This document shows positions 2,735 to 43,732 of a DNA stretch of 64,000 nucleotides, one piece after another. Location of the stretch: the sequence record PZ445527.1; one strand, written 5' to 3'. The notes under the pieces were generated by a model. That model was not told the origin of the DNA. It made no database searches and saw only the letters and a list, made by a program, of their open reading frames with translations. How positions within the stretch are numbered: position 1 is the stretch's first letter; the number at the start of each line of letters is the position of its first letter. The translations under genes and the position numbers were made by a program. The DNA is from a phage.

Positions 2735-3166
2735 TTACCAATCGTTAACAACACCAGAGAACTCAGAAGCAAAAACTTTCTCAAATTTTTCTGCAATTTC
2801 AGGATGATCCTTACAGATCAACTCAATACATGCTTCTGGAGTCATTCCTTCGTCTTCAGGATCACCATAATACTTGTCCCAAAGATCGTCAGGGATGATG
2901 TGCTCTGCCAAATCTTGGAAAGAGATTAGCTGATAACGTTCTGCTTCCTCAGGGATAAGGATTTCACAAAGATCTTTATCTATATCACTACGGTAATCAG
3001 CAATTAGCAGGGCATTGCAAGCATGACACTCCCAAACCATCAAGCGTTCAGAAATAGAATTAGACTTATCCTGAATGTAGGACTGAAACAGGGTTCGAAA
3101 AGTAGCTTTAACTTGTTCAAACTTATCTGCTGCTGCAAAAACTAGAGCTTTATCAACTTTGTTCAT
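2735..3166 (-). CDS. hypothetical protein (143 aa)
   Basis: First ORF after promoter 3197..3225, with RBS GAGAAGGAAA. Confidence 0.6.
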   Translation of the reverse strand: MNKVDKALVFAAADKFEQVKATFRTLFQSYIQDKSNSISERLMVWECHACNALLIADYRSDIDKDLCEILIPEEAERYQLISFQDLAEHIIPDDLWDKYYGDPEDEGMTPEACIELICKDHPEIAEKFEKVFASEFSGVVNDW

Positions 3167-3196
3167 TTTGTTTCCTTCTCATCAATTTATAAAGTA

Positions 3197-3225
3197 ATTA
3201 TACAGAAACTTAGGCATTTTAGCAA
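3197..3225 (-). promoter_or_regulatory. T5-type early promoter (TTGCTA-17-TATAAT)
   Basis: Hexamers and spacer read directly; leader is TTATAAATTGATGAG. Confidence 0.75.
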
Positions 3226-3341
3226 ATAAAACTTTTAATTAAAATGCCTAATCCTGTACTAATAGCAATACAAATGATTATAAGTATTGCTACTGCTTGT
3301 ATGACTCGTTTAATGATAACCTCAGCTATATACTTAGACAT
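3219..3341 (-). CDS. possible small membrane protein (40 aa, not in the ORF track)
   Basis: MSKYIAEVIIKRVIQAVAILIIICIAISTGLGILIK has one TM helix. It overlaps the end of the phosphoesterase gene by 8 nt. Confidence 0.3.
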   Translation of the reverse strand: MSKYIAEVIIKRVIQAVAILIIICIAISTGLGILIKSFIC

Positions 3342-40594: not shown

Positions 40595-40628
40595 AGCCAG
40601 GTTGCTAGTCGACCTGGCTTTTATTTTA
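40595..40628 (+). terminator. rho-independent terminator after nrdD
   Basis: AGCCAGGT-9 nt-ACCTGGCT stem followed by TTTTATTTTATTT. Confidence 0.8.
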
Positions 40629-40629
40629 T

Positions 40630-40658
40630 TTGCTTTCAGCTAAAAATATATGTATAAT
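40630..40658 (+). promoter_or_regulatory. T5-type early promoter (TTGCTT-17-TATAAT)
   Basis: Hexamers read directly; leader AGATTTATAAATTTGAGAGGAG. Confidence 0.8.
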
Positions 40659-40686
40659 AGATTTATAAATTTGAGAGGAGAAGACT

Positions 40687-41067
40687 ATGAAAGTAAAACC
40701 CTATATAGTTGAGTCTACGTGCGGGAGTTTCCATCTAGGAGTGGATGATATTGCAGAAGCTATCTTTGCTGCTACAGGTGATTACTCCCATATAGGGGGT
40801 GCTGCATACCCCACCGTTATTGGTGATTGGGCGGAAACAAATCTAGATGTATCACCATATAGCTCACATTGCTTGTTTGATGAAGACAGAGATGAGGTAA
40901 AATGTAATCTTGAATTTGTATACAATAGAGTACTAAAAGTCTATCAACACAGTGTTGAGGGATATGAAGATATTACTGGAAGTATTAAACAATATCTTAA
41001 AGATGTATACTCTAATTTTTCTGATGAAGACCTGGAAACAGTTGCAGTGGAGTTTAATAATGACTAA
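40687..41067 (+). CDS. hypothetical acidic protein (126 aa)
   Basis: First ORF after promoter 40630..40658. Confidence 0.6.
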   Translation: MKVKPYIVESTCGSFHLGVDDIAEAIFAATGDYSHIGGAAYPTVIGDWAETNLDVSPYSSHCLFDEDRDEVKCNLEFVYNRVLKVYQHSVEGYEDITGSIKQYLKDVYSNFSDEDLETVAVEFNND

Positions 41068-41293
41068 GAATGTGAAACACCTTAAATATCGCTTAATCTA
41101 TAACGGACGTATGGAAACTGAAGAGCTAGCTCAATTAGCTATTAACTCTAGTGAGGTTATGGTGCGTGCGCTAGCAATTGAAAAGTTGCGTGCTTCTTAT
41201 GAAAGCCGTATTATGCAACTGGAGGAAACCCTTTATGGGCTTCTTGAATCAGAAGCTAAAAGCAACCCAGAGGATAGACCTACTAAGCAATAA
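41060..41293 (+). CDS. hypothetical protein (77 aa)
   Basis: ATG 41060 overlaps the upstream stop (AATGACTAA). The track's 113-aa version overlaps the previous gene. Confidence 0.5.
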   Translation: MTKNVKHLKYRLIYNGRMETEELAQLAINSSEVMVRALAIEKLRASYESRIMQLEETLYGLLESEAKSNPEDRPTKQ

Positions 41294-41347
41294 AAGGTAT
41301 GCATATTATGGAATAATTTTACCCCAAAACATTATCGAAGGATTTAA

Positions 41348-42187
41348 GTGAGGAACTGTACAGTGCGTAGATTAATTATTATTAGCGGTGCAGGTTTGAG
41401 CGTTGAAAGTGGTGTACGAGCCTTCCGTACTGATACTGCTAGTGGTAAAGCATTGTGGGATGATTATGACTTAGAAGAGGTATGTAATATTCATGCCTTT
41501 CGTGGTAATTTTTATCATAAAACCCATATGTTTTACAACAAGCGTCGTGAAGAGCTAAAAACTATTGAACCCAATCTTGCGCATCTTCGTATTGGTGAGT
41601 GGTATAAACAATACCCAGGTCAAGTAGTAAACTTGACTACTAACGTCGATGACCTTATTGAGCGTGCTGGCGTTCCGCATAGTGACATTCTACATATTCA
41701 TGGGTATTTAAAAGAGGTTGTTGTAGCTGACAGCTACAATAGCAGTAATAAACGAGTTATTGATGTTGGGTATAGCTCTATTGACCCAGATGATTATAAA
41801 TGGGTTAAACCTAATGTAATCTTCTTTGGTGAGCATGCTCCAGCGTACGCAGAAATGTACAATATTTTTGATGGTATTACCAGTCAAGATATGATCGTTG
41901 TAGTTGGTTGCTCTAACCAAGTAATTAACTTCTACTGGGAATTATTCCCTGTTCTTAATTTGACTGCTGCCAAATTAATGGTAGTTAACTACTATGATAG
42001 TGCCCTAGCGACAGAGCCAGGCTATCAAGGTATGACTCGTAGTGAGATGTACCAGCTGGAAGAACGCGGTATCCCTTACTGGAGTAAAGGGGCTGTAGAT
42101 GCCTTCAGTGACCCTGATTTTATTACTCGTGTAGAAGCTCATCTAGAGGGTAGACCTTATATGCCGGGGAAACAAATATGTCCATAA
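41348..42187 (+). CDS. Sir2-family NAD-dependent deacylase / ADP-ribosyltransferase-like protein (279 aa)
   Basis: Sirtuin motifs ISGAGLSVESGVRAFR, TTNVDDL and a catalytic His in LHIHGYL. Start is GTG 41348 or GTG 41363. Confidence 0.75.
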   Translation: MRNCTVRRLIIISGAGLSVESGVRAFRTDTASGKALWDDYDLEEVCNIHAFRGNFYHKTHMFYNKRREELKTIEPNLAHLRIGEWYKQYPGQVVNLTTNVDDLIERAGVPHSDILHIHGYLKEVVVADSYNSSNKRVIDVGYSSIDPDDYKWVKPNVIFFGEHAPAYAEMYNIFDGITSQDMIVVVGCSNQVINFYWELFPVLNLTAAKLMVVNYYDSALATEPGYQGMTRSEMYQLEERGIPYWSKGAVDAFSDPDFITRVEAHLEGRPYMPGKQICP

Positions 42188-42360
42188 TTAAATCTGTGTA
42201 TACACACCCTGATGATATATTTGTATGGGCGGATGGTAGTTGGTGCTATCGCTGTGAGCTGTGGGAAATGGACTATAAATCCGATGACTATGGTGTCATA
42301 TATGTTGATACGGTTGAGTATGATACGTTCTTAGAAAGGGACAAAAGTGGAAATAAGTAA
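42178..42360 (+). CDS. hypothetical protein (60 aa)
   Basis: Overlapping junctions with both neighbours. Confidence 0.45.
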   Translation: MSIIKSVYTHPDDIFVWADGSWCYRCELWEMDYKSDDYGVIYVDTVEYDTFLERDKSGNK

Positions 42361-42854
42361 TACTCCGATTATTTTTCTAGACATTGATGGGGTGCTCAAT
42401 TCGAGCATCTCCCACCATCATGCACCTGATGATGAAAAGATTTTCTTTGGAAGTGACTGGGTTTTCAAACCGCTTCTCAAGGCTTTTCAGGACTTTATTC
42501 GTCCTTCTCCGATAATGATTGTTGGAGTATCCTCATGGTTCTCTGTCAGGAATGAGGTGGAGAACGTTCACATTATGACCGGATTAGGTCTTATCGATCG
42601 TTTTCTAGGTACAACGGATTTTACAGGGGGGTGGATTATCTAGGGGTAATTCTGTTCTTCGTTTCGTTGAAAAGCATAAGCTCAAACATTGGTGTGTGCT
42701 GGATGATGCTGGTGCTATGATGTATCAGTATCCAACAGTTATAGTCAATGGTAGGACTGGGATAAATCTTCAAGATTTAAAAGCTGTTAGCTATATGCTA
42801 GAATTTAGCCCAGATCTTGAAATGTGTAAATCCTTACAACAATTTAAGGTGTAA
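42347..42854 (+). pseudogene. HAD-superfamily phosphatase-like gene disrupted by a +1 frameshift in a G6 run
   Basis: Frame A (IIFLDIDGVLNS, HAD motif I) stops at 42641..42643. The next frame continues GGLSRGNSVLRFVEKHKLKHWCVLDDAG to 42854. Deleting one G at 42626..42631 restores one ORF. Confidence 0.7.
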
Positions 42855-42856
42855 AT

Positions 42857-43285
42857 ATGTTCAATAATGTATTCTCTAAAGAAGCTAACCCAATTTTGGT
42901 TAACTTTTGGCGTACTCTTCCAGCCAACCTATACAATGAGGCTATTAATGCTCTGAAAATATGGTGTGAGAATAATGAAATCTCCTTTGCTTTTAAAGGT
43001 GAGATTGAAGAGGCTCCGTGTATTGGTTTAATTGTGCAGGTGGAGGATGGTCTTGAAGAGATTGTCGGCTGGAAAGAGTTAGATGAAATGGGCTTGGTTT
43101 TTGCATTAAACTATAAGCTGTTTATGCCTAATAAACACCGTATTGTTGTTAATTATAAAACCAGTGAATCTCCTGGTTTTCAAGTTAATGAACGGTATGG
43201 TTGGTCTTACTCACCAGAAGAGGTAAATGATGGTATCCAAAAACTTCGCCGTTTTGGTTATCAAATTCCGGGTTTAACTGCCTAA
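42857..43285 (+). CDS. hypothetical protein (142 aa), paralog A
   Basis: Shares PCIG...W.EL..MGL..ALN..LF.P...Y.P......L.R.G...PGL with the next ORF. Confidence 0.6.
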   Translation: MFNNVFSKEANPILVNFWRTLPANLYNEAINALKIWCENNEISFAFKGEIEEAPCIGLIVQVEDGLEEIVGWKELDEMGLVFALNYKLFMPNKHRIVVNYKTSESPGFQVNERYGWSYSPEEVNDGIQKLRRFGYQIPGLTA

Positions 43286-43294
43286 GGAGGCACA

Positions 43295-43681
43295 ATGGAA
43301 CAAGTATATTGGCGTCAGATTGATCCTAGTTTAGTGAAGCGTGCAGAGAAGCTGCTACAACGTTGGTTGGGGGTAAGACAAGCCTCCTTCACTTTTCCGG
43401 AGCAGCAAACGGATGATCCCTGTATTGGTGTTTTCCTATCAGGCTACGCTAGGGAATTGGATTGGAATGAGTTGTCTGCTATGGGTTTAATTGTTGCACT
43501 AAATTTCTTTTTGTTCCATCCACGTGGTTTGGCCATATGTCGTGTGCCTGATGACGGTTGTTCGCCCCATCTTTTACAGGTGAAAGATGATACTTGGGAG
43601 TACACTCCAGATATTCTCAAAGAAGCCAAAGAACAATTGAATCGTGTTGGAATCTATGTTCCAGGCCTGAATGATGAATGA
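43295..43681 (+). CDS. hypothetical protein (128 aa), paralog B
   Basis: RBS AAGGAGG. Collinear similarity to ORF 42857..43285. Confidence 0.6.
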   Translation: MEQVYWRQIDPSLVKRAEKLLQRWLGVRQASFTFPEQQTDDPCIGVFLSGYARELDWNELSAMGLIVALNFFLFHPRGLAICRVPDDGCSPHLLQVKDDTWEYTPDILKEAKEQLNRVGIYVPGLNDE

Positions 43682-43704
43682 TTTTTATTAGCTGAACTCT
43701 AATT

Positions 43705-43732
43705 GCCGAGTCATTTTGGCTCGGTTTTCTCT
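43705..43732 (+). terminator. rho-independent terminator
   Basis: GCCGAG-9 nt-CTCGGT stem followed by TTTCTC. Confidence 0.6.

Follow-up and report, generated by a model that had tools for sequence, protein, structure and literature searches.

At one locus in a 64,000-nucleotide stretch of phage DNA (record PZ445527.1, analysed as a whole and referred to below as the window), a gene resembling HAD phosphatases was found to be divided between two reading frames. The question raised by this locus is whether the division reflects a mutation carried by the phage, an error in the deposited sequence or a device by which one enzyme is obtained from two frames. The first ORF, which starts with GTG and comprises 98 codons, encodes MEISNTPIIFLDIDGVLNS...TDFTGGWII and ends at a premature TAG. 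A second frame, one base on (the phase of position 42348), is open from 42609 to the TAA at 42852-42854 and reads ..GGGLSRGNSVLRFVEKHKLKHWCVLDDAGAMMYQYP.. after 42609 (also rendered as GGGLSRGNSVLRFVEKHKLKHWCVLDDAG... up to the TAA). The frames part inside an invariant T-G-G-G-x-x-R-G motif, after which the first-frame product continues as W-I-I and is terminated. Motif I, the TDFTGGWII terminus, the continuation to 42854 and the GGGGGG run at 42626-42631 were all located where the original prediction had placed them. Deletion of one base within 42625-42631 produced a single ORF of 168 codons plus stop, as had been estimated, the product of which was identical in every residue to the intact protein encoded by phage vB_EcoS_HASG4 (HASG4). 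The two fragments matched one Pfam model, PF18143, co-linearly, at positions 1-78 (E=1e-10) and 89-138 (E=8.5e-5), so the split was not a chance juxtaposition of unrelated frames. The features of the locus are collected in Table 1.

Table 1. Coordinates of the divided gene, its motifs and its neighbours in the window
Feature	Position	Strand	Remarks
Transcription-unit context	40595..43725	+	Terminator-like hairpins at 40595-40619 and 43705-43725 (terminator scan)
T5.100-like gene	40687-41067	+	
Sir2 gene (PF02146)	41348-42187	+	
T5.104-like gene	42178-42360	+	60 aa; overlaps the start of the HAD gene
5' fragment of the T5.105 ortholog (HAD_SAK_2)	42347..42643	+	GTG start; motifs I and II only; aligns to residues 1-95 of intact 168-aa proteins
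HAD motif I, FLDIDGVLN (nucleophile D12 and D14)	42374..42400	+	Codons 10-18; columns F10-N18 invariant in the 17-sequence family alignment
HAD motif II region, VSSWF (S62/S63)	42527..42541	+	S63, W64 and F65 invariant; V61 and S62 at least 90% conserved
One-base insertion site, A42625 followed by G6 (42626-42631)	42625..42631	+	One of the seven bases is supernumerary (alignments, indel list)
3' fragment, GGGLSRGNS...VLDDAG...QQFKV, then TAA	42627..42854	+	One frame on (translation, ORF list, PF18143 positions 89-138)
Motif III, GGGxxRG	42627-42647	+	In the 3' fragment; G95, G96, R99 and G100 invariant
Premature TAG	42641..42643	+	Made by the frameshift in the original frame
Motif IV, DD	42702-42707	+	In the 3' fragment; D119 and D120 invariant
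DUF7415 paralog (PF24187)	42857-43285	+	142 aa; two DUF7415 repeats
DUF7415 paralog (PF24187)	43295-43681	+	128 aa; two DUF7415 repeats

The window belongs to a T5-like phage (Demerecviridae, Tequintavirus). Its DNA was approximately 94% identical to T5-like genomes over 24 kb, and the best local matches, at approximately 98%, were vB_Sen_I1, HASG4 and EASG3. By homology, the divided gene is an ortholog of the phage T5 early gene T5.105 (YP_006933.1, 168 aa). Its orthologs in Tequintavirus and Epseptimavirus, such as HASG4_00131 and Elw_00131 ("RNA repair protein"), have the same 168-codon length and the same position in the early operon. The repaired product was 100% identical to the HASG4 protein and differed from the T5 protein at approximately four codons (NG86 estimate: two non-synonymous changes per half). 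The genes of T5, HASG4 and Elw are all intact, whereas the copy in the window has one extra base and is cut at codon 98.

By family and fold, the gene product is assigned to the cap-less HAD-superfamily phosphatases of family PF18143 (HAD_SAK_2). An intact relative matched profile positions 1-138 of 139 with 71.7 bits (E=1e-19). In the window, the 5' fragment scored 42.6 bits, above the curated gathering cut-off of 27.5 bits, and the 3' fragment alone, which was co-linear (profile 89-138), scored 23.4 bits and fell below it. The domain was carried by all 22 cluster representatives found. In a family alignment of 17 cluster representatives, reaching down to 36% identity, the invariant positions were F10-L-D12-I-D14-G-V-L-N18, S63-W-F, G95-G96-x-x-R99-G100 and D119-D120. 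The claim that a HAD-phosphatase-like gene is split by a single-base frameshift requiring a +1 shift was therefore upheld by the PF18143 match and by the invariance of DxD, SSWF and DD in the family. VLDD had been taken as the context of motifs III and IV; it does hold motif IV, and motif III is found elsewhere, in GGGxxRG, where G95-G96-x-x-R99-G100 most likely contains the basic residue of this motif (R99). In every intact relative, motifs II (S/T), III (K/R) and IV (DD) are present in one polypeptide, whereas in the window they are not, and the frameshift is the only reason for this. G96, R99, G100 and the DD of motif IV, which binds Mg, are missing from the 98-residue product. The allele, as written, would be null, with a truncated product that is presumably inactive.

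To assess the fold, AlphaFold2 was used to model P0018, a homolog of 97% identity, and gave a confident result (pLDDT 94.1, pTM 0.91). The model showed a Rossmannoid HAD fold, and its top PDB matches were HAD phosphatases. The best Foldseek matches were KdsC/YrbI, MDP-1 (2wm8, TM 0.59, probability up to 1.00) and the phosphatase domain of T4 PNKP, all of them distant (E>1e-3, TM at most 0.59, 11-21% identity). A phmmer search of the PDB with the protein sequence revealed no relative. The C0 HAD phosphatases KdsC/YrbI (2p9j, 2r8e), MDP-1 (2wm8) and the PNKP domains (2ia5, 3zvn) share a Rossmannoid core without a cap, and their motif set (DxD, S/T, K/R and DD) occurs in the phage protein too; the PNKP structures compared are the phosphatase domains of the T4 (2ia5) and mammalian (3zvn) polynucleotide kinase/3'-phosphatases. 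Unlike the multi-domain SAK proteins of PF18143, in which kinase, ligase or other modules are fused to this domain, the phage protein is a stand-alone domain of 168 aa. Judging from the model, the enzyme most likely hydrolyses an exposed phosphomonoester through a phospho-aspartyl intermediate, with Mg as cofactor. By analogy with the family name and the fold, its substrates may be phosphorylated nucleic-acid ends or nucleotides; the label "RNA repair" has its source in the name of the Pfam family. A literature search on PF18143/HAD_SAK and the T5 gene yielded no paper and no biochemical activity for the phage proteins.

The gene order around the locus is that of the T5 and HASG4 annotations: nrdD, terminator, T5.100/101-like genes, Sir2, T5.104-like gene, HAD gene, two DUF7415 genes and terminator. 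Between Sir2 and the HAD gene, T5 has both T5.103 and T5.104 (L032, 5244-5602), whereas in the window and in HASG4 only the T5.104-like gene is present. With 272 aa, the Sir2 protein of T5 is slightly shorter than those of HASG4 (273 aa) and the window (279 aa). The tandem DUF7415 paralogs lie directly 3' of the HAD gene. According to the T5 annotation, the homologs of the HAD gene and of T5.107 in Aeromonas phage Aeh1 (ORF303 and ORF299) are a few ORFs apart, a hint from gene order that the HAD-DUF7415 neighbourhood may be conserved across T5-like and T4-like phages.

In RefSeq and in PHROG-based annotations, including that of T5 (NC_005859), many orthologs of the HAD gene bear the name "Sir2 (NAD-dependent deacetylase)". 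The source of this name is the family phrog_18062, which comprises 92 aa and corresponds to residues 77-168 of the HAD protein only, a C-terminal fragment, and is nevertheless named Sir2. From the domain matches, this label looks like a wrong annotation that has been propagated, the true Sir2 gene being located two genes upstream.

It had been proposed that the lesion lay in the length of the G run. To the contrary, the nearest relatives (HASG4, EASG3, vB_Sen_I1, NBSal003 and GEC_vB_N5) all read TTTTAC-GGGGGGTGG, that is, ACG GGG GGT GGA, with the same six G residues in frame, and at the same alignment position the window reads TTTTACAGGGGGGTGG. Compared with these phages, the supernumerary base is thus, by parsimony, A42625 at the 5' edge of the tract and not a further G. 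An extra G within the run would require an ACA GGG GGT ancestor, and it was rejected as the simplest reading because an ACA threonine codon was present in none of the 34 in-frame relatives and because the nearest relatives have G6.

The comparison of G-run lengths in related phages that had been suggested showed that the tract itself is variable. Among the 34 relatives, six had G6, seven had G5 and 21, including T5, had a run of at most three. The encoded peptide, TDFTGGGLSRG (TDFTGGGLSRGNS in fuller form), was invariant, and its codons drift synonymously: ten codon states were seen at TGGG, for example, ACT GGT GGT GGG (T5), ACT GGG GGT GGA, ACG GGG GGT GGA and ACT GGA GGC GGT.

Intact copies of the gene prevailed among the relatives, in which it forms one ORF and not the two separate conserved ORFs that had also been envisaged. 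A tblastn search with the intact protein returned 473 phage records, in 451 of which at least 80% of the protein was covered. In an evenly spaced sample of 60 records, 53 T5-like records contained the gene in a single piece and at full length, and 27 of the 28 IMG/VR loci were intact, T5 included. The frameshifted 24-mer was absent from all IMG/VR contigs. Of 434 records, none matched the window exactly across the 70 nt surrounding the site, and each of the 60 best was shorter by one base or more. A collection of 15 billion proteins contained neither the exact 98-aa fragment nor the 52-aa C-terminal ORF nor the adjoining 142-aa protein.

The dN/dS ratio among 31 relatives was 0.07 overall, 0.09 for the N-terminal half and 0.05 for the C-terminal half. 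Considering these low values in both halves, it may be concluded that the two were selected as one protein. The repaired gene of the window had no non-synonymous and two synonymous differences from that of HASG4, and its out-of-frame 3' part showed no decay; the mutation, if real, is therefore very recent.

Losses of the gene were also found. In L030 (IMGVR_UViG_2706796320, 2757-3318) and PQ002169.1, a deletion that removes Sir2, the T5.103/104-like genes and the first 63 HAD codons fuses the T5.101-like ORF to HAD codon 64, giving a fused ORF of 129 aa. In DT57C (NC_027356.1), only HAD residues 128-168 remain. Given these independent losses, the HAD gene is, as judged from genome comparison, dispensable, and the Sir2-HAD block is lost together.

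The quality of the assembly was examined with a split-CDS screen, in which every ORF of at least 60 aa from the corresponding 70 kb of T5 was searched by tblastn; the screen was repeated with HASG4. In both screens, no annotated CDS of the 64 kb other than the HAD gene was divided between frames. No further frameshift was detected in the real CDSs of the window, the other splits being spurious ORFs over tRNA genes, RNAX and intergenic DNA. The run at 42626-42631 was the only G run of six or more in the 64 kb: the homopolymer census gave one G6, nine G5, one C6, 11 A6 and 25 T6 tracts, and no run of seven or more. G/C runs were strongly depleted relative to A/T runs in the window. The coincidence of the single frameshift with the only G6 tract implicates a homopolymer-related process, either slippage in vivo or sequencing error.

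A second indel at the same tract was found in OR845040.1 (Salmonella phage S.Ent 1-35-3; L036/L042), which carries an independent -1 indel at L036:429-433. Its tract reads ACGGGGGT, a deletion of one nucleotide that shortens G6 to G5 after AC, and this is its sole gap in 869 nt compared with EASG3. The record is a SPAdes contig with approximately 710x coverage that is flagged UNVERIFIED_ORG, and its indel may itself be an error. No clean frameshift was present elsewhere in the gene among the relatives examined.

Two drafts with G5 at the site, MG969412 and PV785641, were considered as proof of a site-specific artefact and were set aside, both being riddled with indels throughout and hence uninformative in this respect. 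Comparison of MG969412.1 (L037, UNVERIFIED GE_vB_N5, 148.7 kb) with the intact MW006479.1 (L040, GEC_vB_N5, 110 kb) revealed 23 gaps and one mismatch over 869 nt, the gaps being single-base or dinucleotide deletions; MG969412.1 is a raw draft of the long-read type that is still public. A record named "Listeria phage LM 4-11-1" (OR847503.1, 2,682 bp) was 96% identical over 900 nt to the T5-like Sir2-HAD region. It is probably a mislabelled or contaminant contig, and it shares its submission series with OR845040.

Judged by its distribution among the sequences compared, the insertion arose by accident in this sequence alone and is not a recoding device. Whether the accident occurred in the phage or in the record was weighed as follows. 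A real and very recent loss-of-function mutation is given close to an even chance and is the explanation to which we commit, narrowly and on roughly equal terms with a consensus error. Several observations favour a real mutation: the rest of the assembly is clean, a simple miscall of run length would not account for the change relative to the nearest relatives, the site is the only long G run in the window, a clean indel of independent origin occurs at the same tract in OR845040, and the gene can be lost, as in L030, PQ002169 and DT57C. Against it, homopolymer edges are classic sites of consensus errors, the extra base is taken from the deposited record, the indel in OR845040 is itself open to suspicion, and under the strong purifying selection observed in the relatives a loss is unexpected a priori. 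The perfect condition of the repaired gene, including the lack of 3' decay, fits an artefact equally well. If the error was instead made in sequencing or assembly, one spurious base was added at the edge of G6 and the real phage has an intact gene of 168 codons, which we consider a serious contender at somewhat less than even likelihood. Such an error is favoured by the constraint on the gene and its integrity in nearly all relatives, by the identity of the repaired protein with that of HASG4 without secondary damage, by the fact that no G homopolymer in the 64 kb is longer than the one at the site and by the presence of indels within the gene in related drafts (MG969412 as opposed to the intact MW006479, and similarly PV785641). 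However, no other CDS was broken despite 36 A6/T6 runs and one C6 run, from which it follows that the assembly is not generally prone to homopolymer errors. Moreover, an over-call would be expected to give G7, whereas by comparison with the nearest relatives an A has been added next to a G6 of unaltered length, and an over-call from G5 to G6 would again need the ACA ancestor that none of the 34 relatives has. As a rough estimate, a real indel at such a tract and a residual consensus error would each be expected beforehand in a few genomes per thousand, and it is for this reason that the two explanations were rated so closely.

The remaining readings, a hypermutable switch, recoding and a split enzyme, are unlikely even when taken together. 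Phase variation had been suggested, and the tract might be a hypermutable on/off switch (a contingency locus) that toggles the phosphatase in the HASG4-like subclade. Two independent indels of opposite sign at one tract (+1 in the window, -1 in OR845040), the lack of other clean frameshifts in the gene and the accessory nature of the gene are in keeping with this. Nevertheless, the homopolymer of a contingency locus is typically at least 8 nt long, maintained and polymorphic in length; the present tract has only six nucleotides, its length in the window equals that in the nearest relatives, and its distribution among the 34 relatives indicates that it arises by synonymous drift and is not maintained. 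The two indel alleles exist, and a switch is still very improbable. A related proposal is that synonymous drift in the HASG4-like subclade created G6 inside the Gly-Gly-Gly codons of T5.105 and thereby a recurrent indel hotspot, so that populations would be heritably polymorphic (on/off) for an enzyme of the RNA-repair type, in which leaky +1 read-through on GGG GGG might regenerate the exact wild-type protein; this was given the same very low credence. Programmed +1 ribosomal frameshifting at the GGG GGG codons, or slippage during transcription, by which the full-length enzyme would be restored, is less probable still and was rejected as effectively refuted. It is true that the P-site tRNA-Gly, after slipping by +1 on either GGG, would pair again and restore precisely the wild-type TGGGLSRG, that AGGGGGG resembles the Shine-Dalgarno-like stimulator of prfB and that the 0-frame stop follows four codons on. 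The likeness to the +1 frameshift of prfB (RF2) consists of the G-rich Shine-Dalgarno-like element upstream of a 0-frame stop and the need for a +1 shift; in contrast to prfB, the site in the window is not conserved, has the wrong spacing, has no shifty P-site codon at the stop and no autoregulatory logic, and corresponds to a single ORF in relatives. Six nucleotides, instead of three, separate the Shine-Dalgarno-like run from AUC-UAG, and re-pairing of tRNA-Ile on UCU is impossible. The A site at the run is occupied by neither a stop nor a rare codon, GGG and UGG being the codons that come next, and the downstream RNA structure is unremarkable (z=0.10). No homolog shares the shift, the run is missing in most relatives, and the same nucleotides are ordinary in-frame codons where they occur, so nothing conserved is there to be programmed. 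Efficient slippage of RNA polymerase is known on A/T runs of roughly 9 nt, and G6 is well below this. Trace read-through by a spontaneous +1 slip on GGG GGG, giving the exact wild-type sequence, may occur, and nothing points to its programming. The least probable reading is that the halves are made separately and reassemble as an active split enzyme. Both halves do keep perfect coding potential; yet the first in-frame start of the 3' frame is GTG 42696, which lies inside motif IV, lacks a Shine-Dalgarno sequence and is not usable, its 52-aa product would lack the invariant GGGxxRG, and the two-ORF arrangement occurs in no relative. A split enzyme was rejected on account of the missing start codon and Shine-Dalgarno sequence of the 3' half.

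According to the preferred explanation, a recent mutation in the phage, the 5' edge of G6, the tract in this region at which slippage is most likely, would have gained one base when the polymerase slipped or misincorporated a nucleotide. Translation from GTG 42347 would then leave the conserved frame inside TGGGxxRG and stop at the TAG after W-I-I, the resulting fragment with motifs I and II only would have no phosphatase activity, and the loss would be tolerated because the gene is dispensable. If the tract truly reads ACAGGGGGGT, the allele is a real knock-out. If it reads TTTTACGGGGGGTGG or TTTTACAGGGGGTGG, the ORF is intact and an artefact is favoured; ACGGGGGGT or ACAGGGGGT would mean a consensus error in the record, and mixed lengths would indicate instability of the tract. 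Detection of the junction peptide FLGTTDFTGGGLSR from the frameshifted template would indicate read-through.

The locus presents nothing new in kind, being an ordinary broken copy of a known and widely annotated phage gene, and its significance beyond annotation hygiene is small; the mislabelling of HAD orthologs as Sir2 is the more useful by-product. Should the extra base be spurious, the record needs correcting and the gene is one CDS of 168 codons. If the extra base is real, the phage represents a naturally occurring T5.105 HAD phosphatase knock-out, which would confirm that the gene is dispensable and would provide a ready-made strain for the study of its function. One possible function to ask about is the countering of host nucleases that leave 3'-phosphate or cyclic-phosphate ends.
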